Shown: piece by piece, positions 7,601 through 43,559 of the stretch
How the letters are laid out: the number at the start of each line of letters is the position of its first letter
How positions within the stretch are numbered: the stretch's first letter is position 1
Assembly: GCA_002269645.1 (NCBI GenBank)
Contig: NIVC01001584.1
Location: 92,807-156,806 of the forward strand
Reading direction: 5' to 3'
Origin: Macrostomum lignano
Lineage: Eukaryota
Length of the DNA stretch: 64,000 nt
The notes under the pieces: generated by a model
The model's input: only the letters and a program-made list of their open reading frames with translations
Database searches by the model: none
Told to the model about the DNA's origin: nothing
Translations under genes and position numbers: made by a program

Positions 7601-8740
7601 ATTGGCCCGGGTGAGAGCTCGATTCGACGGGTCAACTACGGCTTTGAAGAAACCACTGGTTTTTCTATTTTGAAGGAGCTGACGGACTGCACGTTTTTGA
7701 ATGCCGACGACGACAGGAAGGGATGGACTGCGAAGGCCAAGAAGTTTGGCAGCAAGGTTTGCAGTCGGGACTTTTGCTTCTGGCTGAGAACTAATCCTGA
7801 TGCCGGTCGGATGTGCGGCATTCAAAGCCTGTTCGGTACTGACCTGGCCGAAATTCAGGACAAAATGAAGAAACTGACCAAAGAAAAATCACTGAAAGTT
7901 TCGGAAAGTAATCAAAAAGTTGAACTCGAAGACAGAGTTGATAGACGCAGTCTCAGGCAATACGATCACATTGTTCTAAATCGGATGGTCAACGGAGTAG
8001 TTTCTGAGGTTGATTTCATTTTAACCGAGTGGGATGCTGCCACTTGTTCCGGCGTTGGGGTCACGTACGAATTGCCGCAAGGTTCCGGAGCCATGGGAGT
8101 CGTCAAGTTTCAAGGATTTCTTCGCGTTGAAGACAATCAGATCGAGAAGGTCGTGCACAACTCCGATTTAGACTGGAATCAGATCGACGCCAAATTCAAT
8201 CAACTGTGTGGCAGTAGGAGTTACAGTTTACTGTTTAACAACTGCGAACACTTTGTCAACTATTTAATTTATGGCCGGGTGAGCAGTACTCAGCTGAATA
8301 ATCTAGCCTGGCGTTTTAGCCACTTTTTGCCCAACGCGGTGCAAAGCATTGCTACTGCCGCAGTTCGAATCCTTCGATTAGTCTACACCTTGATGGAGAC
8401 GGGAAGTTTGAGCACAGCTGCTTCACTTCCCTTAGTGCTGATTGAGGGCGGCTCGGTGCTTTTAATTGCCCTTTTGGGAATTGCATCATATCTTCTTTTG
8501 CGGTATCGTAAAGCGAAATTCAATATGCCTCAGCAGGAGTTCCTCGGCAGAAGACGTGACATCTTGTGCCGCACTTTGGTTCCAATATTTAGCGTAATCA
8601 TTGTTGGAGCCGTCATTCACACTGCCCCGGTCAGTGCCCCCATTATTGGCAGTGCCGCTGGAGTCGGAGCACTGGCTGTTGGTCTTGCTTACTTCCTGCC
8701 AAGGTTTTTAGCACTACTGATGGCGCGAATGAAACCGTAG
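4614..8740 (+). pseudogene. Poly-LRAT/NC-domain membrane protein, copy 1 (~1375 aa if one T is restored at 7162-7166); frameshifted allele or homopolymer sequencing error
   Basis: ORFs 4614-7214 and 7061-8740 join by adding one T: gtcatttttacag here versus gtcattttttacag in copy 2. Repeated GD(V/I)I...EVVxRARSxL...F..WCKT modules, a final YSLLFNNCEHFVNYLIYG (LRAT/HRASLS NC motif, Cys at 8243-8245) and hydrophobic C-terminal segments. The ATG directly follows an acceptor-like tttcag, so a 5' exon may exist. Confidence 0.8.
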
Positions 8741-8830
8741 CAGATTTACTGCAACCTTTTATTGAATAATTTATTTGCTTACGAACTTTTGTTTTAATAA
8801 GTATGGTATATGTACCTATACAGCCATGGG

Positions 8831-9343
8831 CAACTGAAGTAGAAGGACGCTCTTAGTGGTGACATGTGTGCCTATGGTGACACCCCATGACCATCCCTTA
8901 CCCTACTTCAGTTGTCTATGTGTATACAGTACGAGTGTTGGAATATTTGGTATATAAAATCCGATGTCTTATTTAATTGACCTTTAATGGGCGCCTTCGC
9001 AGCAAAGAATCAATAGTCTATGGTACAAATACTTCTATACCGGGACCAATAAATCATTTAATGGTCTTCAAACGGGCTCTGCCCCCGCACCTCCACCCGC
9101 AATCACGGTCGACCAGATTGAATATCCCAAAAATAAGCAATCTGATTTCATAGAAAATAATAGTCATTAAATTAAGCTATGTCTATGGTCTGAATGTCCT
9201 TGGCCCCACTCAATTACCCTATTCAGCGGGAACTCTCTAAAGCATATTACCTAAATGCACTATAGCAGAAAACAGATGTACGTTCTTTGGCCTCCAGCTC
9301 ATTTTCTAAGTAAACTGAGCGTAGCGTCCTTCTACTGCAGCTG
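8831..9343. mobile_element. MITE-like element with ~21-bp TIRs (second copy at ~20250-21213)
   Basis: caactgaagtagaaggacgct at 8831 versus agcgtccttctactgcagctg ending at 9343; the same TIR pair lies downstream of gene copy 2. No TSD resolved. Confidence 0.55.
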
Positions 9344-13167: not shown

Positions 13168-13814
13168 AGGACGCAACACTCGAGATCTATGGAAAATGCT
13201 TTGGAAGGCCACTTTTCGCCGAAAAATACACTACGGAGATAGGAAGTTTTCATTTTTTCAGCACAACAATTTTTATTGCTTTTGATCGGAGGCGAATCCA
13301 ATGTTTAAGTTTTGATGTAATTTGCCTCTCTTATAGCTCTATTGATATTCACAAAGCTTTCCCTTCAGAAAATTAGGATTCAATGTCAATCTTTGATTCA
13401 AAGTACATTTCCTGTTCCTAAAAATCATTAAAATGCATGGCACAGCTTGAATTTTTGGTTTTGTGAATCTATTTTATTATCTCATTGTTACACAGTCAGC
13501 TAAGAATGATAAAACAGATTCATAAAACCGATGAGCCGAGCCATTTCAATGGTTTTCAGGCACAGGACATGTGCTAATGTACGTCGAATAAAAAAATAAC
13601 ATAAAACCCGAATTTTCTGAGCGAAAAGCTTTATGAATATCAATGGAGCTGTAAAAGAGGCACATGATATCAAAAGATGAACATTGGGTCAGCCTCCTAT
13701 CAAAAGCAATAACAATTTTTGTCCTAAAATGAAAACTTCCTACCTACGTAGTGTATTTTTCGGCGAAAAGTGGCCTTCAAAACACTTTTCCATAGATTTC
13801 GAGTGTCGCGTCCT
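13168..13814. mobile_element. MITE/foldback with ~230-bp imperfect TIRs (partial copy at ~30990-31130)
   Basis: aggacgcaacactcgagatctatggaaaatgctttggaaggccacttttcgccgaaaaatacactacg... is mirrored by ...cgtagtgtatttttcggcgaaaagtggccttcaaaacacttttccatagatttcgagtgtcgcgtcct. Confidence 0.75.
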
Positions 13815-16037
13815 GTATATAAACGAACACGAAGACAAACTTCACAGCCTCATGCAGTATCTTACATTCTCATATCTCCCAGTATATATCATACAGTCTG
13901 TGACATGCATTCACATTCTCTCTCTCTCTCTCCATTACATCACATTCTCATGTTTACCAGTCTCATACTTCGAATTCATAGTCTCATATCTTACAGTCTT
14001 ATGCCTGATTGTCTCATATCTCAAAGTCTCATCTCACAGTTTCATGTCTCAAACCTCATATCTCACAGTACCCGCTCTAACACCCTCTGCTATTTCATTT
14101 CTCTCTCAAATCTCCTTCCAGAACACGTGGAGAGCAAAAAACCTATTTAAAAAGATTTAAATGTATTCAAGTTTGAGTTATTTTAGTCTTAATATTTTCT
14201 ACTCTAAAACAAAGTACAAACTAGCGAGTACTCTGACCAAATACATGGTGGCTGAATGACCCGATTCAAATGACGTCTTACTTCAGTCTTTCGGATTTGT
14301 CAATCAATAAGTAGCAATGATAAAAAATTATAATCCTCTGTATAGATGGCATCTCTTTGTTTATTTTGTCAGTCAGGTTAGAGTAGGGCTTCTCATACGA
14401 ACGTATATACTGTACGTGATGGGTGTAATTTGTTTTTTTGTATGTCAAATTGGCAGCCTATTTTTCTAAATTTCCCCGGAGGCCATTTTTCGCATTATGA
14501 TGTGATGCCTGCCTTTGAATCCATTTAATTCTGCTTGCTTTTGATGGTCAGAGACAGTCTAAGACCCTAAAAGTCTATGTCGAGCGCTGAGCCGTGTAAG
14601 GCCATTCTAGATGATGAAGGTTAAACAATGCATCATTCGCTCCAACATCTAAGTAGCTCTTAAAGACAGTTGAGAGAGAGTAAGAGAGATAAAGAGATAC
14701 CTAAAAGAAAAGACGCAGAACCCATGCTATTCATTATTCGATAAAAAATTTTGGGGGGGGGGTCTCAGATTCAGCAGACTCAGACTCTGCTGCAGTATGC
14801 ACTGCATTGTGCATCTCTATACGCCATGGTTATACTATCAAAAATAAGATAGACAGAAAAGAAGTGCATTCTTGCGGAAACTGTTTTGCTGCCATGCGCA
14901 ATTATAAATAAGCGCGTGTTAATAAAAGTTTGCTTGCGTCAAACAAACAGACTGTTTTAAACCTACCAGTGTTTCGAGTTTCATGACCTAAACAGGTACG
15001 CTTGCAACTTTTTATTGATTTTCCTTCTACAAACTTCTGCATTGGTAAGCAGGTAAGATGTATTTAATTACTGCTGCTACCTTTACTGCATTTCTAAATT
15101 GCTCTGAGCTTTACTTTTCCAAGCAATTTTCACATTGTCGAAGTTTTTAATGCTTCAAAAACTCGAAACTCTAAGCTTTATATGAGAGCATCGTCGAAAA
15201 GTCTAAGAAGTTCACGAGTCGAACTCATGACTAGCAAGGGTTTTTTTAACGATCATGTAAAGTTCCTATTTTGTGAAAGTGACGATACTGACTCTAAGAC
15301 TGATGAGTCTGCTGATATATAATTCATTCTTAATTAAAATAGTATTCAAATTGACACGTTGCTTGAAACCGTAAATATCAACAGTAGCTATCAGCCTCAG
15401 TAGAGTTGTTGAAATACAAACTCATTATGAAATATCAAGGTACTTATTCTTTCCTAAAGTAATTCCCATTTTTACGATTGGTTGTCAAAATAAAACATAT
15501 GCGAATGAAATCACGTCAAGTAATTTTAGCATCAGATCCACAATCTAACGTTCTGGATTTTCAAACTCCACATGTAGCAAGCACATGCATGGTTCGCTCC
15601 AGGTGCACTAATAAAGTTTATTAAGAAAAATCTTTAAGTCGCAGGACAGTGGCAAGGCTCCAAATACTTTTTTGCGAAGATTTTGGTTTATTTCATTGAG
15701 CTAATCGTAAAAACAGCTTCGACAAGGACGAAATTCAGTCATGAAAAATCTATGCTAGTAAAATATGCGATAATACGAGCTACATGAATATAGCGACTTC
15801 CAAAACACTATTTACGTCTTCTGAGACTTTACTAGGTAATATTTATTTCTATACAGAAAATCGTTCAACTCTATCTTTAATATGAGATGAAAGATGCCTT
15901 TCTCTGGTGTTGTATATTAAAAACGTTTCGTATTTGCGCATCGAAAACCAGTCTCTAGCAAAATCTGAAATGACCACAATTGCCGAAATGAGCTTTCTAA
16001 AAACCCTGACATTTCTAAAAAACCCGGACAATTTCAG

Positions 16038-19000
16038 ATGCAGGCACTCGAAGGCTCGCAGACTGCACAGCGGCTGCCCCTTCAACAAGAGGCTGCAGCA
16101 GCTGTGGTGGCCGCCCAGCCGCCCGACACTCCCGAGGCAGCAGCTCTGCAAGCTGAGAGACCTTCACCGGTTACAGGCTCAATTCAGAGCTACGAAACTT
16201 TAACACCGGAATCGATTCGAAATGTAAGGCCTGGAGATGTCATCAAAGCGTCAGGACGTTCTGAAGCAATCGTTGTTGGAGTTGAATTCAAAGACGGATT
16301 ATTTGAATTTTCGACAATTTATCCCAAACTATGCAGAGTTTTCGGCCAAATTGAGAGACGAGTAATCAAAGACATATTAATAGTTAAAATTATAAATTCT
16401 AAAAGATCTAAACATCTGAAACCCAGTTGCCAACTTCGACACTTTCCAAAATCGTGCTGCCATGCTCTTGACGAAGTTGTCAGGAGAGCTCGAAGTCTCT
16501 TGAACGAGAAACGCCTTACTAATAAGTCAGGTTTCATACTTTGTTGCAAGACGAAGGACCAATCTCACAGAAAACATTGTACCGTGCCAATTTATCTGCC
16601 TGGAAATTTTGAAACCCATGAAGTAAAAGTTGGGGATCATTTGAGTCTTAAGCACGACTCTGGATCAATTCATGCAGTCGTACGAAGTAGCCAAGAGATG
16701 TGCGAGGACATTTATTTACTATCGTTGAGTGTTTCCGCGCAGGACTTGATGAAGAATCGAATTTCCTTTGTGAACCTTTCTAAGCGAAAATTTATACAAT
16801 CGAATGAGCGCGTTCCAGTTGTAATATCGGTATCGAAGTGCGTAGAGACTAAGGAATTTCTCCACAGGATCGAATTGATGCGCGGCGTCGCGTATCCGAG
16901 GCGCATTTCGACTCTGCAGTTTTGCCTTCTTCTCACCGACTCGAGTCGCCACGGGCAGGACTGGAGGCTGCAAGTCGCACAGATGTCGAATCAAAGTAGA
17001 CTGATTCGACCATTGACCCGAAAAATTGAAGCGAAAAATCTTCAAAGAGGCGACATCATTTTTGTTGACGATGCCTACAGAGTAGTCCGCCGTGTAGTTA
17101 GCGACGCGGATGAATTCAGCGTTAAATTAGTCAACTACAGTGAAGTCGACCACGAAAATCGCAAGACTTGCACGCTAAAGTATCTGATAAGAAAGAAAGA
17201 GACGGAAACAACTCTGTGCGTGCACAATGACAACACCGCTGATTGTCCTTTAGACTTAGAAGACTCATCTCCGGTAAATCTCGCAGCCATCTACTCAGAG
17301 GAACCGGTAACCCTCCAGTTGCTTCAACAGCTACAGAAAGGTGACGTCATTTGCCTGCGGTACACTGGCAAGTGGCACAGGGTTATTGTGGAGAAACTGG
17401 CGCATGAAAATGAAGAATACATTGTCACTGCTATTCATTACGGATTGAAATCGTGGTTTGACGGTAAAACAGTGATCAGAGAGGACTTTGTTTTCAAATA
17501 TGACAGACAGCGAACTAAGCAGGTGCATCCGAAGTGCTTTCTCTGCCACTTCTCGGATCTCTGGTGCCACGAGCCCGATGTTGTGGTTGAAAGAGCTCGA
17601 AGCCGCCTCAACGAGCAGGAATACTCTCTGATTGCTAACTGTGGCACTTGGTTTGTCGTGTGGTGTAAGACCAAGTCCATCAGCCACAGAGCTGACAACT
17701 CGGTGCCCATATTTCTAGATGGCTCTCACACTCACGAAATTAAAGGAGGTGATCATCTTGAATTTAACTGCGGTCTAAAAAACAGACTTCACGGAGAAGT
17801 GACCAAAGTAACTAAACTGAATAATGGGCGAAAACTTTTTCTCGAATTGCAAGTAATCAAGCCCCATGAATTGCATTACGTGCACACAAGTGAACTAGTG
17901 CTCAAAACGGATGAGGAAGTGACTCGAGTCATTCAGTATCCGTTTCGTGTCATCAGTGAAGCGGAATTAACATGACGCATTGAGTTCATAGAAAATTTGG
18001 CCTTCAACCACAGTGAAAGTTCATTCAAACTTTGTCGCCTGGTGACGAACTGCGATAGCAGATTTGATGATTGGAAAGACAGCATTTGGGATGCATTGAC
18101 TCAAAATGAAGTGCAAAGCAATCGGCCCGTATTGGTTGAGAGTGTTACTCCCAATCATGACAATGAGTTATCCGTGGCTTGTGATGGCCTTAGAGTTGGC
18201 GACATCATACTTGTGAATGGTGTCTATCGTGTTGTTGCGGGCGTCAGTGCCGGCAGCGGTCAGTCATCCGGACAAGTCAGCATTAAAACGCTCCACTACG
18301 GCTCTCAAAAACAAAATTTGTGTGTGTCAAAATTAAAGTACATCATTGATGCTGAAGAGAAGGACGCCAAACTGTGCGTACACAATGATCCCAGCTTGAA
18401 CTGCCAATTGTATGGCGGTGGTAGCCAGGCACCAGCACATATGGCTGAAGAAGTACATGATATGCAAAGCATTTCAGCTGGCTCGGTCATTTCTTGGAGA
18501 GACCATTGGTATTCTCTGTACCAGCACGCTGTGGTGGTCGGAAACCCGGTGGTACCGGATGCGAACAATCCCCACTGCGCTGCAATCGATGTCATTTTTT
18601 ACAGAGGTTCGTGGAGAGGTCAGATTGAGAGGCAAACTTTATCAGTAGACTTGAAGAAGCAGAAAATTTATACGATTAAGTACAACGTACTGGAAGGCTG
18701 CGTTCTCACCCCAGAAGAGGTGATTAAAAGAGCCAACAGCCGACTCAAAGAGAAGCAGCACAACTTCCAGTGGAACAGCAGTCGCGACTTTGCTCGCTGG
18801 TGCAGCATCAAGCATAGCAGCAACAGGGAGCAGTGCGCAGTTCCCGTACACTCGGCGAAAGACCTTGTTGAGTTCGAGAGAGGCCACATAAAGTTCTACA
18901 AGTCGCCTTGCTTTTACAAGCACGAAGCAATTATGCGCAGCTGCTCTGCAGTGGATGGCTGCAGCGATATTGTTCGGGTCGAGTTGTACGAAAATAATCA

Positions 19001-20177
19001 CGACCAGAAACGGGTGCGATTTGAAAAGCTCGTCATTGGCCCGGGTGAGAGCTCGATTCGACGCGTCAACTACTACGGCTTTGAAGAAGCCGCTGGTTTT
19101 GCTATTCTGGAGGAGCTGACGGACTGCACGTTTTTGAATGCCGACGACGACAGGAAGGGATGGACTGCGAAGGCCAAGAAGTTTGGCAGCAAGGTTTGCA
19201 ACCGGGACTTTTGCTTCTGGCTGAGAACTAATTCTGATGCCGGTCGGATGTGCGGCATTCAAAGCCTGTTCGGTACTGACCTGGCCGAAATTCAGGACAA
19301 AATGAAGAAACTTATTAGAGAAAAATCACTAAAGGTTTCGGAAAGTAATCAAAAAGTTGAACTCGAAGACAGAGTTGATAGACGCAGTCTCAGGCAATAC
19401 GATCACATTATTCTGAATCGGATGGTCAACGGTGTAGTTTCTGAGGCTGATTTCATTTTAACCGAGTGGGATGCTGCCACTTGTTCCGGCGTTGGGGTCA
19501 CGTACGCATTGCCGCAGGATCCAAAAGACATGGGAGTCGTCAAGTTTCAAGGATTTCTTCGAGTTGAAGACAATCAAATCGAGAAGGTCGTGCACAACTC
19601 CGATTTAGACTGGAATCAGATCGACGCCAAATTCAATCAACTGTGTGGCAGTAGGAGTTACAGTTTACTGTTTAACAACTGCGAACACTTTGTCAACTAT
19701 TTAATTTATGGCCGGGTGAGCAGTACTCAGCTGAATAATCTAGCCTGGCGTTTTAGCCACTTTTTGCCCAACGCGGTACAAAGCATTGCTACTGCCGCAG
19801 TTCGAATCCTTCGATTAGTCTACACCTTGATGGAGACGGGAAGTTTGAACACAGCTGCTTCACTTCCCTTAGTGCTGATTGAGGGCGGCTTGGTGCTTTT
19901 AATTGCCCTTTTGGGTATTGCATCATATCTGCTTTTGCAGCATCGCAAAGCGAACTTCAATATGCCTCAGCAGGAGTTCCTCGGCAGAAGACGTGACATC
20001 TTGTGCCGCACTTTGGTTCCAATATTTAGCGTAATCATTGTTGGAGCCGTCATTCACACTGCCCCGGTCAGTGCCCCCATTATTGGCAGTGCCGCTGGAG
20101 TCGGAGCACTGGCTGTTGGTCTTGCTTACTTCCTGCCAAGCATGCGCGCCATACTGATGGCGCGAATGAAACCGTAG
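16038..20177 (+). pseudogene. Poly-LRAT/NC-domain membrane protein, copy 2 (1379 codons) with an in-frame TGA at 17973-17975
   Basis: ORFs 16038-17975 and 17997-20177 are in the same frame. Copy 1 reads TTG ATT CGT CGG ATT where copy 2 reads TTA ACA TGA CGC ATT. Same module order, NCEHF motif and hydrophobic tail as copy 1. Confidence 0.82.
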
Positions 20178-20562
20178 CAGATTCACTGCAACCTTTTATT
20201 GAATAATTTTTTAATTACGAATAATTATTAGATATGTGTACCAACAGTCATGGACAACTGAAGTAGAAGGATGCTCTTAGTCTTAGTATATTTTCGAGAA
20301 AGCTAATTTGTCTATGGTGAAACCCCATGACCATACCATTGCCCTACTTCAGTAATTGTCTATGCGTATACTTATTCTAAAGTAATTATTTACTCTACCA
20401 TACAAAATTGCTTATTTAATAGCTCCAGACAAACTACGACCTTGTAATATGCTGAAGACCATGCATAAAGTCCAGAAGTTTACGGTACATGCATATTTAT
20501 GGTATTTTTCGACTTAATTGCGTGACGTACTCAGGAAAAAAACAGTTGCTTTTAGTTTAAAC

Positions 20563-30076: not shown

Positions 30077-31657
30077 GGGTCTACGACGTTTGCCTGCGGG
30101 ACGTTTGCCAGCCGACGTTTGCCTGCGGGACGTTTGCCAGCCGACATTTGCCAGCCGACGTTTGCCAGCGGGACGTTTGCCAGCCGAAGTTTGCCTGCCG
30201 GACGTTTGCCTGCGGGACGTTTGCCAGCCGACGTTTGCCAGCCGACGTTTGCCAGCCGACATTTGCCAGCCGACGTTTGCCAGTCGGACGTTTGCCAGCC
30301 GACATTTGCCAGCCGACGTTTGCCTGCCGGATGTTTGCCAGCCGACGTTTGCCAGCCGACGCTTGCCTGCCGGAAGTTTGCCAGCCAAAATTTGCTAGCC
30401 AATATAAAGCCAGTCAGTGAAAAATTTGATACTGAAACATTCGCAGTTTAGCGGTTTGACAAAAACCGTTTTTACTCCAACTTTTTGACGGTTATTCGCA
30501 TGTATACAAGTTTGAAAGCAAAATCTATAAATTATGCAATTTATATAGATTTACATCTAATATCCAGTTTAACAACGATTTTCTTTGAATGTGAAAATAT
30601 TGTTTACTTTTGACAATTGTGTATCGTTTTTCCCAGTTTGAGATGTTTGATTTTTGATGTGCGAAAGAAGACGCGCAGATTACAACGGGAATCTCCAGCG
30701 ATTAAGTTATGAGGCAAACAAAAAGAGCTGCTGAGCGGTAATTCTGGCTCATATATTTCTCAGTTCATTGGGAGATCTAAAAGTAAGCAAATTGATTCCA
30801 ATTCTGTTGTATTACTACTCAAGTAAGCAAGGAAACCGCGATCTCAACGTACATGTGTAGACGAGTCGAATGCGGTACGTTTTTATAGTAAGCTATATAG
30901 CTGAATAGCCAGACAAGCCGCCAGTAGCAAGCTAGTAGAATAGCAAGCGCTAGACACTACGTATGCAAAGCTTAGTCATGCCAAGGACTACTAAAGTAGA
31001 AGTACGCAGCACTCGAAATCTATGAAAAATGTTTTGAAGGCCATAGGGAGATAGGAAGTTTTCATCTTTTCAGCACAACAATTGTTATTGCTTTCATACG
31101 AGGCAAACCCAATGTTCATCTTTTGATATGTTGTGCCAAAATCGTTGTTAAACTAGATATTAGACGTTAGACTGATGAACTGCATAATTTATATATTTTG
31201 CTTTCAAACTTGTATACATGCGAATAACCGTCAAAAAGTTGGAGTAAAAACGGTTTTTGTCAAACCGCTAAACTGCGAATATTTCAGTATCAAATTTTTC
31301 ACTGACTGGCTTTATATTGGCTAGCAAATTTTGGCTGGCAAACTTCCGGCAGGCAAACGTCGGCTGGCAAACGTCGGCTGGCAAACATTCGGCAGGCAAA
31401 CGTCCGGCAGGCAAACTTCGGCTGGCAAACGTCCCGCTGGCAAACGTCGGCTGGCAAACGTCGGCTGGCAAATGTCGGCTGGCAAACGTCCCGCAGGCAA
31501 ACGTCGGCTGGCAAACGTCCGGCAGGCAAACTTCGGCTGGCAAACGTCCCACTGGCAAACGTCGGCTGGCAAACGTCGGCTGGCAAATGTCGGCTGGCAA
31601 ACGTCCCGCAGGCAAACGTCGGCTGGCATACGTCCCGCAGGCAAACGTCGCTATCCC
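30077..31657. mobile_element. Foldback/Mutator-type non-autonomous element with ~500-bp TIRs made partly of 14-15-bp sub-repeats (gacgtttgccagcc)
   Basis: Ends GGGTCTACGACG / CGTCGCTATCCC, perfect 9-bp TSD CACTGGGTC (30068-30076 and 31658-31666); arms ~30077-30582 and ~31138-31657. Confidence 0.85.
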
Positions 31658-34046: not shown

Positions 34047-34226
<180 letters not shown>

Positions 34227-34615
34227 TAAGCCCCAATAAAATTGTATATTTTGTTAAGATAAATAACTTTATATATTGTTGTTGGAAGGGCTGGTAGGTA
34301 AAGTTAATTCTAGATGTATAAATGCGCTTTATACTATTACTTACTAAGTAGTTTAAAAGTACATATTTTAGTCAATTAATTCCATTAAATTCGGCACCAG
34401 AAATGGGGCTCTGTTTGCCATAATAATGTGTTTGCCTAAATCTCTGCTATCAAATTAATTGTTTTTTAACCAGAGAGAACTTTACACAACTTACTGCTGA
34501 CTAACTCACGAGAGTCGTTGTGTTAGCGCTTAACTTTCTAGTAACTCAAGTACTGTCTAAATTCGATTAGTAGAAAGCATGAGGGGGCTTCTGGGACAAA
34601 ATTTTTCACCTCCTC

Positions 34616-34824
34616 CATAATCCCATTAAATCCATCCATATTATCCCTGACAGAATCAGAAAAAAAGGGGGGTCGCACCTGCTCACAAAACCTCCTCCAT
34701 AATCCCATTAAATCCATCCATATTATCCCTGACAGAATCATGAAAAAGGGGAGGGGCCGCACTTGCTCCGAAAACTTCGAACATAATCCCATTAAATCCA
34801 TCCATATTATCCCTGACAGAATCA
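34616..34824. repeat. Three identical 43-bp direct repeats at 82/84-bp spacing in the TIR (mirrored in the right arm)
   Basis: cataatcccattaaatccatccatattatccctgacagaatca at 34616, 34698 and 34782. Confidence 0.92.
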
Positions 34825-35023
34825 GAGCAGGTGTCCACTGATACCTGTTATGCTCACTGACACCGACATCCACCCATAGCATGTTCGAAACAATCAGAAA
34901 ATAATCTGCATTCTTCTCCCCATGGGGCCCACATTCAATTTGCAACGCGAAATCAGATCCCTAAGACTTTAAATTATCAGCGCAGGGTCCTTACCCTTTG
35001 AAAAAATTAAATTCTCAATAAAA

Positions 35024-35260
35024 ATGTTTCCAGTTGTCTCTCCAGGTTCTTATTATACTCAGCCTAATCCATTGTACAAATCCAAGTACCGATGCAAACT
35101 AGAATGCAGCGAGTACATGAGAAAATATTGGCCCGACGTTGATATCAATGTCCCTAACATTAATCTAGCTCTCCAAAGACACTGGTTTCATAAGTATGGA
35201 GTAGTCATTAACGATTACGACAGCTACTATAACTTTGCAGAAATCATTAAGCAATTGTGA
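35024..35260 (+). CDS. 78-aa Tyr-rich orphan protein in the left arm (identical protein at 42397-42633, minus strand)
   Basis: aataaaaATG context matching the other element genes; ends 4 bp from the penton stop codon. Confidence 0.6.
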   Translation: MFPVVSPGSYYTQPNPLYKSKYRCKLECSEYMRKYWPDVDINVPNINLALQRHWFHKYGVVINDYDSYYNFAEIIKQL

Positions 35261-35264
35261 TTTC

Positions 35265-36128
35265 TTAAATTCTCTCAATGATCAACGTCAATACAAACTC
35301 TTCACCGTTGAAATCAACACCCATCCCATCTTCAGTCTCAAACTGTAGCACAATCTCGTGAATCTCCTTATTACTCAATACAACTCTTTTCACTGGATTT
35401 GGTTTCTCTACCACCATCTGTCCTCCAGCTACAGAGTTGGAGATATTGTACAAAATATTCGTTCGCTTTCCCTTAAATACCCAATCAAGACTGAGATTGC
35501 TTCTGATTAGAATATTCAAACCCTTTACAATGTCTGCAATATTGGGTGCTAAGAACAAACCGCTTACACTTTCCCGGACCATTCTAACAGTCCCCGATGC
35601 TTGAGTGGCGGTCCGCGCCGCGGATTCTGCCTTATAAACTTTCTTCTCGAATCCCAGTTCCCTATACCAAGTGTCATCTTTAAACTCAACTTCCGCATCT
35701 TTGTGAACTTGCATGACCACTCTCATTACAGTGAGATCATAGGTTAGTTTGACAGGGAACAGTTTCTTCTCTGGCTTACTCGCATCAGGTGTCTCGAAAT
35801 GGCCTCTCTTAGTAAAGACATTTTCTAGAAAGTTATTGTAGGTATCCACACTTTGCGTGCTCACATGGAATACCACAGGGTCTGCTGCTGCACCTTTCCA
35901 TTTGTAATAAAACTTATTATTTGCTGCCATCACATTGGGAACGTTTGACCAACCAGTGAAGTCGTTAAGATAGACATGGTAATTAGCGCCTGGATCCAGG
36001 CGAATCGCCTGCTCTAATTTTTCAACAAACATCCCGTTTGAGTCATTAATTCGACCAGTTATTGTAATAGGAATGCTCTCCTTAGAGTGTGAAACAATGT
36101 TGTTTAGTCTTTCAGCAATCGCTTCCAT
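35265..36128 (-). CDS. Minor capsid protein (penton-like, single jelly roll), left copy, 287 aa
   Basis: Motifs ...IRLDPGANYHVYLNDFTGWSNVPNV..NNKFYY... and ...GVDFNGEEFVLTLIIERI match the Polinton/adintovirus minor capsid pattern; protein identical to 41529-42392. Confidence 0.85.
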   Translation of the reverse strand: MEAIAERLNNIVSHSKESIPITITGRINDSNGMFVEKLEQAIRLDPGANYHVYLNDFTGWSNVPNVMAANNKFYYKWKGAAADPVVFHVSTQSVDTYNNFLENVFTKRGHFETPDASKPEKKLFPVKLTYDLTVMRVVMQVHKDAEVEFKDDTWYRELGFEKKVYKAESAARTATQASGTVRMVRESVSGLFLAPNIADIVKGLNILIRSNLSLDWVFKGKRTNILYNISNSVAGGQMVVEKPNPVKRVVLSNKEIHEIVLQFETEDGMGVDFNGEEFVLTLIIERI

Positions 36129-36150
36129 TTTTTTTCACATAAAAAAATAT

Positions 36151-36831
36151 TTAAACTTTACTGGATGAATTGTTGATCATGTTAAGCTTCACCTTCCTCT
36201 CAAATGCATAGATAATGTACAAGTCCACAGGTGTTGCGGCAGTCCTCTCAATGTTAGTCACGATATTCACAGGGCTGTTATCAGTAGGCATTTGTCTGGC
36301 AGACACATCAGCGCCAAACACATCTGAAATGAACTTATCGTCTATTGCCCTTGAAATGTACCCTATGATTGAAGTGTGCACCCCTTTCTCTTTTACTTGC
36401 TTCTCCTGTAGCTGCTTTAGTTTTTTTCGCCTGTTTCGCGCTACTGCTCCAGTAATTGCTGAAATAAGTCCACATGCAGCACCCACAGAGCCGAGCGGGA
36501 TTGCGATTGGGGCTGTGATGACTGGCAACACTGAGACAGCTGCAGCAGATCCAGATAGAACAGACACAGATCCTAGAATCATATTGCTGTAGTCGAAAAA
36601 TTTACAGTGGCTGTTATAGCGCTTAATTTTCTTTGTGTTGTGGAAAATATTTTTTTCAAGATCATCTCGCATTTTTTGAATCTCCACCAGTCGAAACTGT
36701 TGAGAGTTACAAGTAATGACGGGGTAGAGTTTTTGTTGCTCATATTGAGGTGCACTAGGTGCTGTGGGCGCTGTGGGCGCTGTGGGTGCTGTAAGAGCGT
36801 TCAGATCATAAAGAGAATTTTGAGCATCCAT
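36151..36831 (-). CDS. Chimeric ORF: 170 aa of a hydrophobic-hairpin Polinton protein fused in frame to the last 55 aa of the MCP
   Basis: N-terminal part FRLVEIQKMRDDLEK...ILGSVSVLSGSAAAVSVLPVITAPIAIPLGSVGAACGLISAITG...ISRAIDDKFISD; C-terminal part FGADVSARQ...NSSSKV is identical to the MCP end. The junction is at 36320/36321. Confidence 0.8.
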   Translation of the reverse strand: MDAQNSLYDLNALTAPTAPTAPTAPSAPQYEQQKLYPVITCNSQQFRLVEIQKMRDDLEKNIFHNTKKIKRYNSHCKFFDYSNMILGSVSVLSGSAAAVSVLPVITAPIAIPLGSVGAACGLISAITGAVARNRRKKLKQLQEKQVKEKGVHTSIIGYISRAIDDKFISDVFGADVSARQMPTDNSPVNIVTNIERTAATPVDLYIIYAFERKVKLNMINNSSSKV

Positions 36832-36878
36832 TTTTTTAGGAAATTTTTAAAAAAATAATCGACTACTAGTTGGTGGTG

Positions 36879-37667
36879 TTAGATTTGTTTTACGGTTGAT
36901 TGCTTCGTCTGCAGTGACGGCAACGGGTCTCTTCGAATTTGCCTATTCATTGTCTGTAGCTCCATTCTACGTCTGATCTCAAACAAGTCGGTTGGATCAC
37001 TTATTTCCCTTGTGGTCTGTGGTGGTGCCTCTTCAACGTCAATGTTTTTGAGATTATGCAAGCGTTCAAGACGACCGATTCTTCTCACCGATTTCTGCCA
37101 TTCGGTAAAAACTAAATCTACAAAGACTTTAATTGCAGTAATTCTTACTTTGATTTGATCATGCAACGCTGTTGACTGAGTCATGAACTCTTCTAAATTA
37201 TTGGCTTTAACTGTGTTGGTTGCGACGTTTTCTTTAATTCTATCATGCAATGCTGTTGACTGGTTCATGAACTCTTCTAAATTATTCACTTTAGCTGTGT
37301 TTGTGAAAACTCCTCCTTCAAGAATACGCATCCGTCTATCAATGGAATTTCCCAGAAGATTAACTGATGATCTCAAGCCGTTGATTAGCGAGACTATCGA
37401 AGTTATTTCTGACCTTAGTTCATTAGTTGCGTTTAACAACGGCACATAAAGCTTATCACTTTCAAACTTCTGCCTAGCTACTTTAAGCCTGAGATCTTCC
37501 ATGTTTATTTGCAACTGGTGCATGGAGCGCTCTAATTGTTTCAGTCTGTTTTTATTCAGTTTGATCTCTGGGATCTCTTCATCAGTGTTAATGTAGCGCT
37601 TATCAAGGAAGGAAGTTGTGAGAGTGCTGTTGCCTGTAGTTGACTCACCTGCAAAATTTACTGACAT
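36879..37667 (-). CDS. 262-aa coiled-coil protein with a 28-aa tandem repeat; candidate fibre/spike
   Basis: Heptad pattern across ~aa 35-205; TNTAKVNNLEEFMNQSTALHDRIKENVA / TNTVKANNLEEFMTQSTALHDQIK; aaaaaATG context. Confidence 0.7.
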   Translation of the reverse strand: MSVNFAGESTTGNSTLTTSFLDKRYINTDEEIPEIKLNKNRLKQLERSMHQLQINMEDLRLKVARQKFESDKLYVPLLNATNELRSEITSIVSLINGLRSSVNLLGNSIDRRMRILEGGVFTNTAKVNNLEEFMNQSTALHDRIKENVATNTVKANNLEEFMTQSTALHDQIKVRITAIKVFVDLVFTEWQKSVRRIGRLERLHNLKNIDVEEAPPQTTREISDPTDLFEIRRRMELQTMNRQIRRDPLPSLQTKQSTVKQI

Positions 37668-37682
37668 TTTTTAAATAAAAAA

Positions 37683-38483
37683 TTAAATTAAAATTCTTTT
37701 CTCCTTATTAATCATGACAAACTGATAGGGTTGGTTCCACTTTTCATAGCATATGTTAACAAATTCCTCCTGTGATATTGTTCTGTTAGAGTTCTTAGCT
37801 GGATATGTAATGTGAGCTGGGGCAATGACTTCATTATAAAATCGTTTCAGTCGATCCTGTGGTATGGTTGGGAAAAGGAGAATCAAATTACAGTTACCTC
37901 TAATTGTTTTATTTGGCAGTTCAAACCAGTTTTGGGCAATGTAAATAACATTGCAATTATTATGTCTACCCCGGGTGAAATAATTTTCTATCTGTTTCTG
38001 GGGACCGGTCATGCAGTCATCGAAGACAATCAGGTGCTTTCTCCCCTTTTCTAGTTCATCAGGTTGAGGTAAGAGTTTAGTTTTAGGATCTATCTGTGGA
38101 TCTCCATAAGTGAAAACTTTAATGTTTTGCCATTTTTCATTGTCTGGGATGTGCTTTGCGTATTCAGTGGCTACAACTTCCGGGTTGCTGTTGAGGTCTT
38201 TTTGATGTCTAAAACATTGAATAATATCTTCCTTGTTGAGTTTGTTCTGTAGGCCCGCTACTAGCATTTTATACTCATCTTGATACAGAGTGGGTGAATA
38301 GATATGTAGTGTGTCATAATCGAGGAATCCAGGTCTGAGGAGCATGTTAAAAACTCTGAAGGTTTTCCCTGACCCAGATGAGCCAACAACAATGCATCGG
38401 AAGTGCCCTGGAATTATCTCGTTGTGAGCAAATTTTATCTGATTGCGTGTCCAGTGGGGATGAAAGTCGTTTGTGAAGTCCAT
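37683..38483 (-). CDS. A32/FtsK-HerA family DNA packaging ATPase, 266 aa
   Basis: Walker A IVVGSSGSGKT, Walker B LIVFDD, and the A32-family motif RGRHNNCNVIYIAQ. Confidence 0.93.
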   Translation of the reverse strand: MDFTNDFHPHWTRNQIKFAHNEIIPGHFRCIVVGSSGSGKTFRVFNMLLRPGFLDYDTLHIYSPTLYQDEYKMLVAGLQNKLNKEDIIQCFRHQKDLNSNPEVVATEYAKHIPDNEKWQNIKVFTYGDPQIDPKTKLLPQPDELEKGRKHLIVFDDCMTGPQKQIENYFTRGRHNNCNVIYIAQNWFELPNKTIRGNCNLILLFPTIPQDRLKRFYNEVIAPAHITYPAKNSNRTISQEEFVNICYEKWNQPYQFVMINKEKRILI

Positions 38484-38682
38484 TTTTTATGTAAAAAAAC
38501 TTTTTCTTTTTAAAATTGTGTATTTAAGACGCGTGTGTCTTTTTTCGGGATGTGTATGTGTGTGTCTCTTTGCGGGATGTGTGTGTCTTTTTTTCGGGTT
38601 GTGTGTGTCTTTTTTTTCTACTAGTCCTACATCCGACTAGTCCTACACCCTCACACCTCTTTTACCGTCAGGGTGCACCAAA

Positions 38683-39063
38683 TTAGTCAAATTTAAAACC
38701 GCCTCCTTTCTTATATTCAGCTCTCATCTTTGCGTAGATGGCTGGATCGACACTATCTGCACTCGGTGCAAGGGGTTGAATATCTGGTATTGATTTCCGG
38801 GTTTCATTAACTGTATCCTTTATCTTTTTGGCTGCTGTGGCTACACTGCCAGCCGCTTCGGCAACGTTCTTGATGTTCTCTTTGTTCTCTCCAATGACCT
38901 TAAAAATCTTGGCCCCCTGAGCGATCAAATCGGCAAGACCGTTCCCAGAGCGTTCTTTTCTTGGATAGTGGCCTGCAGGGAAAAGTCCAGATCCGCGTTT
39001 AATGAGATTAAGTTCCTCTTTGTCGTAGTATTTGTCAATGTCTTTTTCGAAAATAATTGGCAT
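38683..39063 (-). CDS. 126-aa basic/amphipathic protein with GxG motifs; candidate virion core or membrane-active precursor
   Basis: Likely start aaaaagATG at 39063 (the ORF track start at 39168 overlaps the upstream gene); KRGSGL, RSGNGL and KKGGGF motifs; amphipathic GLADLIAQGAKIFKVIG. Confidence 0.65.
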   Translation of the reverse strand: MPIIFEKDIDKYYDKEELNLIKRGSGLFPAGHYPRKERSGNGLADLIAQGAKIFKVIGENKENIKNVAEAAGSVATAAKKIKDTVNETRKSIPDIQPLAPSADSVDPAIYAKMRAEYKKGGGFKFD

Positions 39064-39079
39064 CTTTTTAAATAGAAAT

Positions 39080-40189
39080 TTATTTTTTGTTAAACCGTGA
39101 AAGCAAAAGTTCTCTTGCTCTTTTATCGATATATTTTCTCTCAAGCATTTTGTCCAGGATGTTGACAAATTCTTTTCTATTCTCGTCTTTCATTCCGGTC
39201 TTTGCCGCTCCTAGAAGAACAGCTAACCGCTTGTAGAATTCAGGCATGCCTTTTCCGGAAGAGCTTGGAGGTGATTCGAATGATTGGTCAGAGGAGGAAC
39301 TGTCATGTGGCGCTTGTCTTTGTTGAGGTGTGAATACTCTGTCATTGATTCGCTTCATTCGTTCTGGGGAGAGCCGCTCTAATTGTCGCCAAGTATCAGG
39401 GTTCGTATCTTTGTACTGCGAAACAACAATCGGTTCTGCGGCGTCAAGTTGATCAAGTACTTGTTCAACCTGGGTTTTTTGTTGTTGTGGTTGCTGCTGT
39501 TGTTGTCTTATGACCTCTTCTTGATCTGGCAAACCAAACCATTGTTTAAAGTATTTGTATTTTCTAAACCTGTTCAAGTCAATCCTGTTTTCATGTAAAA
39601 CTTTCAAAACACCGTTGTTCTTGAGAATGTCTATGTCCCTCTCTAAAGCGAAGGTAACAAGATCTTTGTAATTTTTTAGCTGCTTTTCAGACGTTTTCTC
39701 TAGATTTTTAGTCATGTAATCAAGTAAAGTTTTAGTGTAGGGGATTCTTTTAGTTTCTGCACCTTTATTGATTGAAATATTTTCCTTTGTTACTTCAATG
39801 TTGTAATCCACCGGTTCCTTGGTAATTTCTTTTCGCCAGGCGCTAATTCCAAAAATATATTTTCCATCAACCATTACGGGGCCAAAAAAGTTATCCGTCA
39901 CATTCATCTGCACTGGTTGTCCTGGTTGCTGAGCCTGTGGTTGTTCCGGTGAAGATGGGATTTTACCCAATGTGTTTTGCAACTGGCTCTCTTGAATATC
40001 ATCAATTGTTTCCTTCACAGTGTCGATGTTTTTCTTCGCTTCTGTGTATCCAGGTTTGTGAAATTCGGTGGCTGCTTGGACGAATTCATTGTAAGATTGT
40101 TGTTCTTTGTTGATTAGTCCGGTAACTCGTTTCTCTGCTTGCGCCAGCTTTTCTAGTTCAGAGATATGATATGAACTTTTCCGCTTCAT
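39080..40189 (-). CDS. 369-aa conserved Polinton-type protein (resembles PZ/core-type proteins)
   Basis: The C-terminal GKG..FYKRLAVLLGAAKTGMKDENRKEFVNILDKMLERKYI resembles the conserved 'RLxLLxAsxxAGN...EixxIldeL' ending of Polinton proteins (recalled from memory, not searched). Confidence 0.6.
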   Translation of the reverse strand: MKRKSSYHISELEKLAQAEKRVTGLINKEQQSYNEFVQAATEFHKPGYTEAKKNIDTVKETIDDIQESQLQNTLGKIPSSPEQPQAQQPGQPVQMNVTDNFFGPVMVDGKYIFGISAWRKEITKEPVDYNIEVTKENISINKGAETKRIPYTKTLLDYMTKNLEKTSEKQLKNYKDLVTFALERDIDILKNNGVLKVLHENRIDLNRFRKYKYFKQWFGLPDQEEVIRQQQQQPQQQKTQVEQVLDQLDAAEPIVVSQYKDTNPDTWRQLERLSPERMKRINDRVFTPQQRQAPHDSSSSDQSFESPPSSSGKGMPEFYKRLAVLLGAAKTGMKDENRKEFVNILDKMLERKYIDKRARELLLSRFNKK

Positions 40190-40219
40190 TTCTTATTTTG
40201 TTTTATTTTTAGTTAAAAA

Positions 40220-41506
40220 ATGAACGACCCACTGGCACCAGTTTTCTACAAAATTAACAAGCCTATTTTGAGTGATGATAGCACAATCAAAGCGACACAA
40301 GTTAGAGTTCCGAGTCACGAGAACCAGAATGAAACTAATTTGGGTCCAGGTCAAACACTGACATTTACATACAATGGATGTTCGTCTCTGGTTAGTGTGC
40401 ACAGTCTTAAGAGCGGATTCCATATGACATTTCAATTCAAGACAAAAGGTGGTGCGGATGCGGCTCGTGCTAACGTTGACAAGCATGATGCGGATGTGGC
40501 TCTGATCAGTAACTTTTGGGCGTACATGTTCAAGGAGTTTAGTGTATTGAATGGGAGCACAGAGTTGGAGCGAATCGCCAACTTTGGAATTGTCTATGAC
40601 GCTCATTGTTTGATCGAGAATCCTGATTTTATTCAGTTGGGAAGTGGTGCGGGTTTTATTGCAGACGAAAAAGAAGGAGATATCAATGACAGTGGCTATA
40701 AAAATAGGAAGAAGAGATACAACTATGCATTGCAAGGTGCAGATGATGCTGCTAAGAACCCGCTGTATCGGTCTGTTGATGTATTTGTACCATTGAGATT
40801 CATGAGTGGATTCTGTAATACATTTAATCGACTGACTAGTAACTTTAGCTACACATTTAGACTGACTAGAGATGATCGCAGTAGAGTGTTGTGGACTGGG
40901 GCGGACCACACTGGGATGGCTGTGAAGCTAACCGGAATCGAGCTGTATTTGGAAGTCATTGAGCCAAAGACTGCACTAAAAGCTGATTATCTCAAGGCAA
41001 TAGAGAAGGACATTGATGTTGCATACACGGCCTACATGTGTCGAGATGAGCGAAACGAAACTAGAACAAACATCTGCATTAAAGAGGGATCATGCAGCAA
41101 TCCAAGGTATATTATTATTAACATGAGAAACCCAAATAGCATTATACGCTACATGCATGGAGACGTGCGGTCCATTCAGCATGAAATCAGTGATAATCTT
41201 TACCCTGCACTGCCACAAAATGGAGATTTCAGTCAGAACAAGATTAGCAAATTTTACAACGAGTTGGTCGACTTGGCTGTGAAAGAGAACAATGGAATTG
41301 CTATCACTGCTCTTCAATATGGAACTCTATATCCGATGTTTGGCGCTGATGTGTCTGCCAGACAAATGCCTACTGATAACAGCCCTGTGAATATCGTGAC
41401 TAACATTGAGAGGACTGCCGCAACACCTGTGGACTTGTACATTATCTATGCATTTGAGAGGAAGGTGAAGCTTAACATGATCAACAATTCATCCAGTAAA
41501 GTTTAA
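40220..41506 (+). CDS. Major capsid protein (double jelly roll, Polinton/adintovirus hexon-like), 428 aa
   Basis: SDDSTIK..., LISNFWAYMFKEFSVLNGSTELERIANFG, ...LYPMFGADVS...PVNIVTNIE...LYIIYAFERKVKLN follow the Polinton MCP pattern; adjacent to penton and ATPase genes. Confidence 0.88.
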   Translation: MNDPLAPVFYKINKPILSDDSTIKATQVRVPSHENQNETNLGPGQTLTFTYNGCSSLVSVHSLKSGFHMTFQFKTKGGADAARANVDKHDADVALISNFWAYMFKEFSVLNGSTELERIANFGIVYDAHCLIENPDFIQLGSGAGFIADEKEGDINDSGYKNRKKRYNYALQGADDAAKNPLYRSVDVFVPLRFMSGFCNTFNRLTSNFSYTFRLTRDDRSRVLWTGADHTGMAVKLTGIELYLEVIEPKTALKADYLKAIEKDIDVAYTAYMCRDERNETRTNICIKEGSCSNPRYIIINMRNPNSIIRYMHGDVRSIQHEISDNLYPALPQNGDFSQNKISKFYNELVDLAVKENNGIAITALQYGTLYPMFGADVSARQMPTDNSPVNIVTNIERTAATPVDLYIIYAFERKVKLNMINNSSSKV

Positions 41507-41528
41507 ATATTTTTTTATGTGAAAAAAA

Positions 41529-42392
41529 ATGGAAGCGATTGCTGAAAGACTAAACAACATTGTTTCACACTCTAAGGAGAGCATTCCTATTACAATAACT
41601 GGTCGAATTAATGACTCAAACGGGATGTTTGTTGAAAAATTAGAGCAGGCGATTCGCCTGGATCCAGGCGCTAATTACCATGTCTATCTTAACGACTTCA
41701 CTGGTTGGTCAAACGTTCCCAATGTGATGGCAGCAAATAATAAGTTTTATTACAAATGGAAAGGTGCAGCAGCAGACCCTGTGGTATTCCATGTGAGCAC
41801 GCAAAGTGTGGATACCTACAATAACTTTCTAGAAAATGTCTTTACTAAGAGAGGCCATTTCGAGACACCTGATGCGAGTAAGCCAGAGAAGAAACTGTTC
41901 CCTGTCAAACTAACCTATGATCTCACTGTAATGAGAGTGGTCATGCAAGTTCACAAAGATGCGGAAGTTGAGTTTAAAGATGACACTTGGTATAGGGAAC
42001 TGGGATTCGAGAAGAAAGTTTATAAGGCAGAATCCGCGGCGCGGACCGCCACTCAAGCATCGGGGACTGTTAGAATGGTCCGGGAAAGTGTAAGCGGTTT
42101 GTTCTTAGCACCCAATATTGCAGACATTGTAAAGGGTTTGAATATTCTAATCAGAAGCAATCTCAGTCTTGATTGGGTATTTAAGGGAAAGCGAACGAAT
42201 ATTTTGTACAATATCTCCAACTCTGTAGCTGGAGGACAGATGGTGGTAGAGAAACCAAATCCAGTGAAAAGAGTTGTATTGAGTAATAAGGAGATTCACG
42301 AGATTGTGCTACAGTTTGAGACTGAAGATGGGATGGGTGTTGATTTCAACGGTGAAGAGTTTGTATTGACGTTGATCATTGAGAGAATTTAA
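41529..42392 (+). CDS. Minor capsid protein (penton-like), right copy, 287 aa
   Basis: Directly downstream of the MCP; identical to the left copy. Confidence 0.87.
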   Translation: MEAIAERLNNIVSHSKESIPITITGRINDSNGMFVEKLEQAIRLDPGANYHVYLNDFTGWSNVPNVMAANNKFYYKWKGAAADPVVFHVSTQSVDTYNNFLENVFTKRGHFETPDASKPEKKLFPVKLTYDLTVMRVVMQVHKDAEVEFKDDTWYRELGFEKKVYKAESAARTATQASGTVRMVRESVSGLFLAPNIADIVKGLNILIRSNLSLDWVFKGKRTNILYNISNSVAGGQMVVEKPNPVKRVVLSNKEIHEIVLQFETEDGMGVDFNGEEFVLTLIIERI

Positions 42393-42396
42393 GAAA

Positions 42397-42633
42397 TCAC
42401 AATTGCTTAATGATTTCTGCAAAGTTATAGTAGCTGTCGTAATCGTTAATGACTACTCCATACTTATGAAACCAGTGTCTTTGGAGAGCTAGATTAATAT
42501 TAGGGACATTGATATCAACGTCGGGCCAATATTTTCTCATGTACTCGCTGCATTCTAGTTTGCATCGGTACTTGGATTTGTACAATGGATTAGGCTGAGT
42601 ATAATAAGAACCTGGAGAGACAACTGGAAACAT
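42397..42633 (-). CDS. 78-aa orphan protein, right-arm copy
   Basis: Same protein as 35024-35260; one synonymous difference seen. Confidence 0.6.
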   Translation of the reverse strand: MFPVVSPGSYYTQPNPLYKSKYRCKLECSEYMRKYWPDVDINVPNINLALQRHWFHKYGVVINDYDSYYNFAEIIKQL

Positions 42634-43559
42634 TTTTATTGAGAATTTAATTTTTTCAAAGGGTAAGGACCCTGCGCTGATAATTTAAAGTCTTAGGGAT
42701 CTGATTTCGCGTTGCAAATTGAATGTGGGCCCATGGGGAGAAGAATGCAGATTATTTTCTGATTGTTTCGAACATGCTATGGGTGGATGTCGGTGTCAGT
42801 GAGCATAACAGGTATCAGTGGACACCTGCTCTGATTCTGTCAGGGATAATATGGATGGATTTAATGGGATTATGTTCGAAGTTTTCGGAGCAAGTGCGGC
42901 CCCTCCCCTTTTTCATGATTCTGTCAGGGATAATATGGATGGATTTAATGGGATTATGGAGGAGGTTTTGTGAGCAGGTGCGACCCCCCTTTTTTTCTGA
43001 TTCTGTCAGGGATAATATGGATGGATTTAATGGGATTATGGAGGAGGTGAAAAATTTTGTCCCAGAAGTCCCCTCATGCTTTCTACTTCGATTTGTTATA
43101 AATGCGAAATATAAATGCTTTAGACGCAACTCAGAGTGATTCTGCAGTGACTCACGACTCAGATAGGACTCTGTGTCATTTCAGAGTACACAAGTAGACG
43201 TGAGTTGGCTACTCCATAGACCTCTTTAAGCCATAGACATTTTTATGCCTCTCATTGTGTGCTACTTCCGTTGTACTAATCTGTTCTAAATTGGATAGCA
43301 AGCTCTCTGAGATGGTGGGGTGGGTAGAATGAAGACTATGTCTGTCTGCCTTAATTTGAGGTGTGAGCAATCCACTTTTTTATAGAATTCTAGGCCAGTG
43401 AAACTGAATTTTTAATTTGTACCTCAGTGCATGTCAAGAATGGTTGTACAGTCAGTAAGGTTTGCAGGGTTCAAAAAAGGACAAACGTTCTAGAATGGTT
43501 TTGGGGTCTTAAGAAGGCTTACAGGGTCTCAAGAAAAGTTGTACGGTCTCAAGAAGGGT

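Follow-up and report, generated by a model that had tools for sequence, protein, structure and literature searches.

Terminal transposition-deletion in poxviruses, terminal rearrangements in adenoviruses and the formation of copy-back genomes all duplicate one end in inverted orientation at the other end, with deletion, and arise in free replicating genomes. For reasons not yet shown, the terminal repeats of Polintons, which are integrated elements, differ greatly in length and in some cases contain genes: ranges of 46-1,447 bp and 100-1,500 bp are given in passages of PMC8097293 and 10.1101/2023.08.22.554363, respectively, and polintons of pierid butterflies have repeats of about 2 kb that hold hexon and protease genes, with polB-less copies also reported, in passages of a paper (10.1101/2025.02.07.637071) that contain no breakpoint series, gene loss at junctions or mechanism. 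In the Galileo transposon of Drosophila mojavensis, internal sequence that adjoins one repeat recurs in inverted form at the opposite end, repair of a break from the other repeat has been proposed, and repeat expansion is stated to have been reported for Polintons, citing Jurka 2007 (passages of PMC3573991). Gene-bearing Polinton repeats and the repeat-primed repair model (Galileo) are already in print; passages of two further papers (10.1101/2024.01.15.575659 and 10.64898/2026.07.28.741278) deal with Polinton-driven rearrangements and terminal palindromes, not with a mirror-ended deletion structure. Here we describe a mirror-ended Polinton/Maverick derivative of 8,519 bp that sits after an exon of the host Rab2 gene of Macrostomum lignano (contig NIVC01001584.1 of assembly GCA_002269645.1; coordinates given without a contig name are those of the window, the whole stretch of 64,000 nt that was analysed), with arms of 1.75 kb as against the published ranges, and compare it with other members of its family in the same genome.

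The Rab2-intron element contains one inverted pair, 34569-36320 against 43087-41337, which aligns by self-BLAST over 1,752 columns at 99.83% identity with 2 mismatches and 1 gap, the left arm being 1,752 bp long and the right arm 1,751 bp. Base-level alignment places the differences at 34587/43069, 34924/42732 (a 1-bp indel) and 35158/42499. Both arms encode identical open reading frames (ORFs) of 287 and 78 amino acids (aa), plus the last 55 codons of the predicted major capsid protein (MCP). The termini read 5'-AGT...ACT-3', within the 5'-AG...CT-3' pattern of Polintons, and a 6-bp target duplication stands on either side, as is usual for Polintons/Mavericks. The preliminary description of this stretch had reported the same arms with the same gene content (penton, 78-aa ORF and last 55 MCP codons) and exactly three differences at these places, all of which agree with the self-BLAST, alignment and ORF comparison; it had the inner end of the arm correctly at 36320, but not the point at which non-arm sequence resumes, which is 36323, after 2 extra bases. 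The features that define the structure are as follows.

34050..34225, plus strand: exon of the host Rab2 gene, lying upstream of the element-bearing intron (best PDB match Rab-2A, E 7.7e-34; spliced contig, run X7)
34563..34568: target site duplication, left copy, 6 bp (from the sequence)
34569..36320: left arm, an inverted copy of 41337-43087 (self-BLAST and base-level alignment)
34608..34826, mirrored at 42830-43048: 84-bp subterminal tandem repeat, 2.6 copies
36318..36324: inner junction, with 2 extra bases (36321-36322) within a 7-mer that repeats 36303-36309
41337..43087: right arm, the native right end (MCP 3' end, penton, 78-aa ORF, terminal repeat), collinear with sisters over 37127-43087 at up to 97%
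43088..43093: target site duplication, right copy, 6 bp (from the sequence)

The terminal 18-mer of the element occurs at 509 places in the assembly (257 and 252 by strand), corresponding to about 250 elements. Sisters align to 37127-43087 at up to 97% identity and then extend left past 36323 into an interior with protease, polymerase, integrase and phospholipase-like genes. Because sisters collinear with the Rab2-intron element continue into those genes, about 8.5 kb of left interior with the protease, the protein-primed DNA polymerase B (pPolB) and the integrase is gone from it, in agreement with what had been presumed of the missing part. In the full-length sister C716:300870-316680 (15.8 kb, with a repeat of about 405 bp) there is a retroviral-type integrase (rve, E 2.7e-10), a sister ORF matches Peptidase_C5 (E 3.6e-04, just below the cut-off), and the sister polymerase ORF, which we take to be PolB from the patterns of three motifs found in it, gave no polymerase match in Pfam, PDB or phage searches. 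The Rab2-intron element has no pPolB ORF among its ORFs, no retroviral-type integrase and no adenain-like protease: it is a Polinton-family derivative without three features of autonomous members and, taken singly, a dead derivative. The break lies in a hydrophobic ORF, which in six sisters runs on for 60-72 codons from a point 5 codons before it. A native long repeat was rejected as an explanation, since arm positions beyond about 690 are present once only in the best-scoring sister contigs and the repeats of full-length sisters span about 260-780 bp; so was an amplified non-autonomous subfamily, the inner junction being matched only once in the assembly when up to 2 mismatches were allowed.

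The inverted pair is real in the assembly sequence, and the mirror-ended structure is real-looking overall. The left host/element junction is spanned without differences by contigs of three of the four runs (X1, X15 and X16, from three studies, one of which may be the source of the assembly). The fourth run, X7, does not cover the intron and looks like RNA, because the Rab2 exon appears spliced in its contigs. In two homologous host loci (C4522 and C1606), which lack 34385-43160, position 34384 of the window is followed nearly at once by 43161. At 3 of the 8 other places retrieved, a small host repeat also aligns with the two flanks in the same order; the flanks of the element therefore belong together. 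The small host repeat, at 34385-34568 plus 43088-43160, is interrupted by the element and is missing from C4522 and C1606. An exact empty site was not found in the comparison with these two loci. The insertion is young, as had been proposed from the similarity of the arms. A shorter repeat variant that skips 322 bp (from 34667 to 34990) is present in all four runs, and in one X1 contig penton sequence runs into an element terminus (35973 to 34569), probably through a nested insertion.

The mirror-ended structure is recurrent, not unique to the Rab2-intron element. Exact matches number 248 for a penton 22-mer (200 listed) and 207 for an integrase 22-mer (100 listed). Among the penton matches listed, 16 outward-facing pairs less than 35 kb apart were chosen, C2787 (28.6 kb spacing) being left out; they comprise 5 long mirror arms with gene loss, 9 repeats that end part-way into the penton and 2 non-mirrors. 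The long mirror arms are those of the Rab2-intron element, of C276 and C1652 (about 4.75 kb), of C633 (4.83 kb) and of C2140 (6.2 kb). The opposite polarity occurs in one case among the matches listed, C975:122373-133902, in which arms of 5.55 kb double the integrase and most of the polymerase around a core of about 490 bp without capsid genes, between matching target duplications. Beyond the Rab2-intron element there are thus four other sites with mirror arms of 4.7-6.2 kb, each with its own breakpoint, C276:289398-300645 and C1652:28604-39932 being one insertion site on two homologous contigs. At C2140:107247-122715 the arms are 99.9% alike and copy most of a 4.4-kb retrotransposon, which lies between MCP and penton, encodes reverse transcriptase and a tyrosine recombinase, has split direct repeats and is presumably Ngaro/DIRS-like. 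Similar retro-type ORFs are also found inside sisters C110 and C860. Two contigs that appeared mirror-like by motif spacing, C1098 and C1518, were rejected as a nested pair and an adjacent fragment.

Shorter extensions form a ladder. In 28 pairs of ends drawn from the listed termini and the first matches, left ends track the right end to arm positions 261, 390, 405, 437, 444, 488, 531, 689, 713 and 754, the commonest boundary being 689, at the penton stop. At least 14 contigs, including five further partial extensions found as penton matches beside integrase matches (among the matches listed), have repeats that reach 180 or 540 bp into the penton and end at arm position 868 or 1231, and integrase-side sequence follows in 14 of 14. 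The preliminary description had named penton-containing native repeats of relatives as evidence that would refute it; the repeats of ordinary sisters do not hold the whole gene, but those of these contigs include part of it. The 868 boundary is found in 10 contigs, with two junction types (6 and 4 contigs) and at least nine sites (C27 and C622 have the same target duplication); the 1231 boundary has the same junction in 4 of 4 contigs. No second copy in the assembly was found of the junctions of the Rab2-intron element, of C2140 (its retrotransposon junction), of C975 or of C633. Extensions sparing the integrase end occur at many sites, whereas integrase-deleting ones are single wherever tested.

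Such a pattern could also be produced by the assembler, if right-end reads were placed on the left terminal repeat and joined to the core via a chimeric read. This would predict divergent outer and identical inner arms, as are observed; the inner junction at 36320-36323 is not among the read-contig pieces listed, which are those of the longest contigs, so that reads neither confirm nor refute it; and the core of C276/C1652 is flipped relative to the flanks between the two contigs, either by a real flip between long arms or because orientation inside long arms may be unresolved. Nevertheless, the position of the C276/C1652 junction is shared by two contigs that agree in their wider flanks at only about 91%, the constancy of the 1231 junction and the two types at 868 are unlike chimeric reads, matching target duplications are present at all six long-arm contigs, and the collinear flanks in two homologous host loci speak for the Rab2-intron element in particular. 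An artefact is therefore considered unlikely.

The positions of the arm differences bear on how the arms arose. In the Rab2-intron element, C276, C633 and C2140, substitutions between arms number 10 in the 2,800 bp of the outer 700-bp segments versus 10 in the remaining 14,763 bp (P 4e-4; C1652, being the same site as C276, and two junction-edge sites of C276 are omitted). With C975 added they number 29 in 3,500 bp versus 11 in 19,617 bp (P 7e-16), C975 being entered as 19 where its difference list gives 20 and its count being inflated by a repeat-number change; in this element about 30 differences fall within the first 355 bp, as against 2 over the following 5.2 kb. The outer differences are the normal inherited state, because ordinary sisters flanked by matching target duplications often show no more than 85-98% identity between their own left and right repeats. 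Since base 8 is nonetheless the same at both ends in 23 of 23 sister pairs, these repeats suggest recombination between copies with homogenisation only at the tips. The clustering of differences in the outer 700 bp points to retention of the old terminus and to copying that began inside the shared repeat. According to the preliminary description, a copy of the right end had taken the place of the original left arm during replication, before the element integrated; this is not supported as stated, given the outer differences at five sites and the C2140 arm, into which a retrotransposon insertion with no other occurrence in the assembly has been copied, although the Rab2-intron element alone is compatible with the earlier timing. 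An origin of its three arm differences in left-type and right-type repeat alleles was rejected, each being a private change in one arm.

We therefore favour copying that was primed within the old terminal repeat and that probably took place in the chromosome, once the element had integrated, as an in-place repair event. A full-length Polinton would have inserted in the Rab2 intron and later suffered a break or gap in its left interior. During host repair, an end left inside the left terminal repeat would have paired with the identical right repeat, and synthesis would have gone inward through the penton into the MCP gene for about 1.1-1.4 kb before stopping. End joining would then have linked the new end to the second broken end, which lay in the hydrophobic ORF, and added 2 locally templated bases. 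About 8.5 kb, with the genes for protease, pPolB and integrase, would thus have disappeared, while both target duplications and the old left terminus would have been retained. The host enzymes, which are proposed because of the junction style only, may be those of aborted homology-directed synthesis followed by polymerase-theta-like joining; in Drosophila, polymerase theta is described as giving templated inserts once synthesis has been aborted (passages of PMC2895639). Products that spare the integrase end would stay mobile and spread, whereas integrase-deleting ones would stay single, as they are wherever tested. Structure, gene loss, recurrence, the positions of the differences and the junction sequence are observed, whereas the timing, the break and the enzymes are inferences. 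We assign this in-place-repair reading a probability of roughly 0.55.

Several observations favour repair in place. Mirror arms of both polarities occur, and the retrotransposon insertion at C2140 preceded its copying into the arm. The core of the Rab2-intron element has 7 private bases in 4,641 sites. At that rate the outer arms should hold 2.1 unshared changes (2 observed) and the inner arms 3.2 (0 observed, P 0.04), and 1-2 private or rare bases are common to both inner arms, a pattern that fits duplication after integration. The junctions look end-joined: in the Rab2-intron element the 2 extra bases lie in a 7-mer repeated 15 bp off (null frequency 0.029), at C2140 about 20 inserted bases are built from local repeats, at C633 there is a 235-bp third piece from the MCP start, and at C276 there is imperfect microhomology.

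Other observations weigh against repair in place. For the Rab2-intron element alone the outer/inner skew is weak (2 vs 0 substitutions, P 0.16), the 7-mer repeat test (0.029) is post hoc, and the C975 junction is a clean join with little homology. Polishing could erase inner-arm differences and leave those near unique flanks; several inner differences do fall near the inner junction. The rare base common to both arms at 35691 is in no contig of the four runs, but contigs drop rare variants; the private core bases may predate integration, and 5 of 9 coding sites are non-synonymous. No unmirrored allele of the Rab2-intron site was found, the two homologous host loci being without the whole insertion. 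C2140 is no proof of an in-place origin, because polintons carrying retrotransposons are reported to be mobile (passages of 10.1101/2025.02.07.637071). The 868 and 1231 forms show that extended repeats can go through the mobile cycle, and a two-switch event in element replication would give the same outer pattern.

The last two points belong to a different explanation, which we regard as less likely: a template switch during the element's protein-primed strand-displacement replication would yield a defective genome with long inverted ends, to be inserted by a helper integrase, and in its two-switch form synthesis would start at the left terminus and cross over inside the repeat. Passage of the 868 and 1231 extensions to new sites indicates that such products use the mobile cycle, and base 8 shows that ends are homogenised in the family; the arms of the Rab2-intron element are 99.8% alike, and their common terminal base is found at only 3 exact matches among the 509 termini. 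Many copies of the family have genes that look intact, and the family appears to be transcribed, because contigs of the RNA-like run X7 cover penton, MCP end and hydrophobic ORF (35325-37186). A single copy-back event, however, predicts outer ends that are identical at origin, which is compatible with the Rab2-intron element but not with C975 and C633, where they differ; C2140 would need an earlier retrotransposon insertion whose unmirrored parent is not in the assembly; and none of the four tested gene-deleting junctions recurs at a second site. It is unlikely that a Polinton replicates as a free linear virus in this animal and that the mirror-ended copies are its defective genomes in integrated form; if it were so, the capsid-doubled forms (Rab2-intron element, C276/C1652, C633 and C2140) and the polymerase/integrase-doubled form (C975) would be complementary halves, and the copies would preserve traces of strand-displacement replication as fossils do, and would mark an initial stage on the way to a two-part Polinton.

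The genes of the Rab2-intron element are listed here with their evidence.

35024..35260, plus strand: 78-aa ORF, left copy, in many sisters situated inside the ordinary terminal repeat, which ends at arm position 689; no Pfam match
35265..36128, minus strand: predicted penton (minor capsid protein), extra copy, same protein (ORF identity and fold match)
36151..36831, minus strand: fusion ORF of 226 aa, a truncated hydrophobic Polinton ORF in frame with the last 55 MCP codons
36879..37667, minus strand: 262-aa ORF, common to sisters
37683..38483, minus strand: A32-like packaging ATPase (Pfam Pox_A32, E 7.5e-07, above cut-off), as expected of a Polinton
38683..40189, minus strand: 126-aa and 369-aa ORFs, common to sisters
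40220..41506, plus strand: predicted MCP, 428 aa, whole (Pfam DJR-like_dom, E 2.3e-04, 20.9 bits, below the cut-off of 27)
41529-42392, plus strand: predicted penton, right-arm copy
42397-42633, minus strand: 78-aa ORF, right copy

The 287-aa ORF is predicted to be the penton of a Polinton from a protein model (pLDDT 70.5, built from a 12-row alignment) whose top folds are capsid chains of mavirus (penton), PBCV-1, Sputnik and EhV-201 (Z 9.9-11.6). It matches the mavirus penton with Z 11.0 and a root-mean-square deviation (rmsd) of 11.4 over 230 aligned residues, and a PBCV-1 capsid chain with Z 10.2 and rmsd 3.8 over 130; in the ESM Atlas it falls in unnamed viral clusters only (0.98). Elsewhere in the assembly, C32:1150965-1151833, C124:22982-23697 and C289:58541-59180 are derivatives of 640-870 bp consisting only of element ends, the latter two with the same target duplication. 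A dense ORF cluster at C716:321019-329802, with ATPase-like and protease-like frames and no DNA match to the Polinton family described here, probably represents a second Polinton-like element that is unrelated to it. The window has further repeats, namely two 4.6-kb direct copies at 4325-8927 and 15782-20371 (92.6%), a 515-bp inverted pair at 30084-31650 (92%) and a 650-bp imperfect palindrome at 13168-13814.

The main value of these observations is the family-wide series, a single copy being of modest weight: snapshots from one genome give boundaries at about 260, 390-530, 689, 754, 868, 1231, 1752 and 4,700-6,200 bp, in both polarities. Two questions are thereby made testable, whether it is host repair or the polymerase of the element that makes repeats grow, and whether deleted Polintons are mobilised by helpers. 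The literature searched contains no account of a mirror-ended or deletion-derived Polinton breakpoint series, although subscription papers (e.g. Jurka 2007) and bioRxiv supplements may hold one; for adenovirus panhandle defectives only general reviews and adeno-associated virus papers were found, with no such series.

The Rab2-intron element resembles its full-length Polinton/Maverick (adintovirus-like) sisters in its termini, 6-bp target duplication, ATPase, predicted MCP and penton, at up to 97% identity over the part that it retains, and differs in being without pPolB, integrase and protease. Unlike the products of poxvirus and adenovirus rearrangement, it is integrated, and its outer terminus appears to be the old one. 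As in the pierid polintons, core genes lie in the repeats, giving two copies per insertion; there, in the passages describing them, the elements with doubled hexon and protease genes are common to many insertions, whereas the long forms here are single-site deletions. Repeat extension in Galileo works in a like manner, internal sequence being recruited to the other end there too; Galileo, however, is a cut-and-paste transposon whose longest repeats, in the passages of its description, are about 1.26 kb, whereas the tracts in M. lignano reach 6.2 kb and double whole viral genes.

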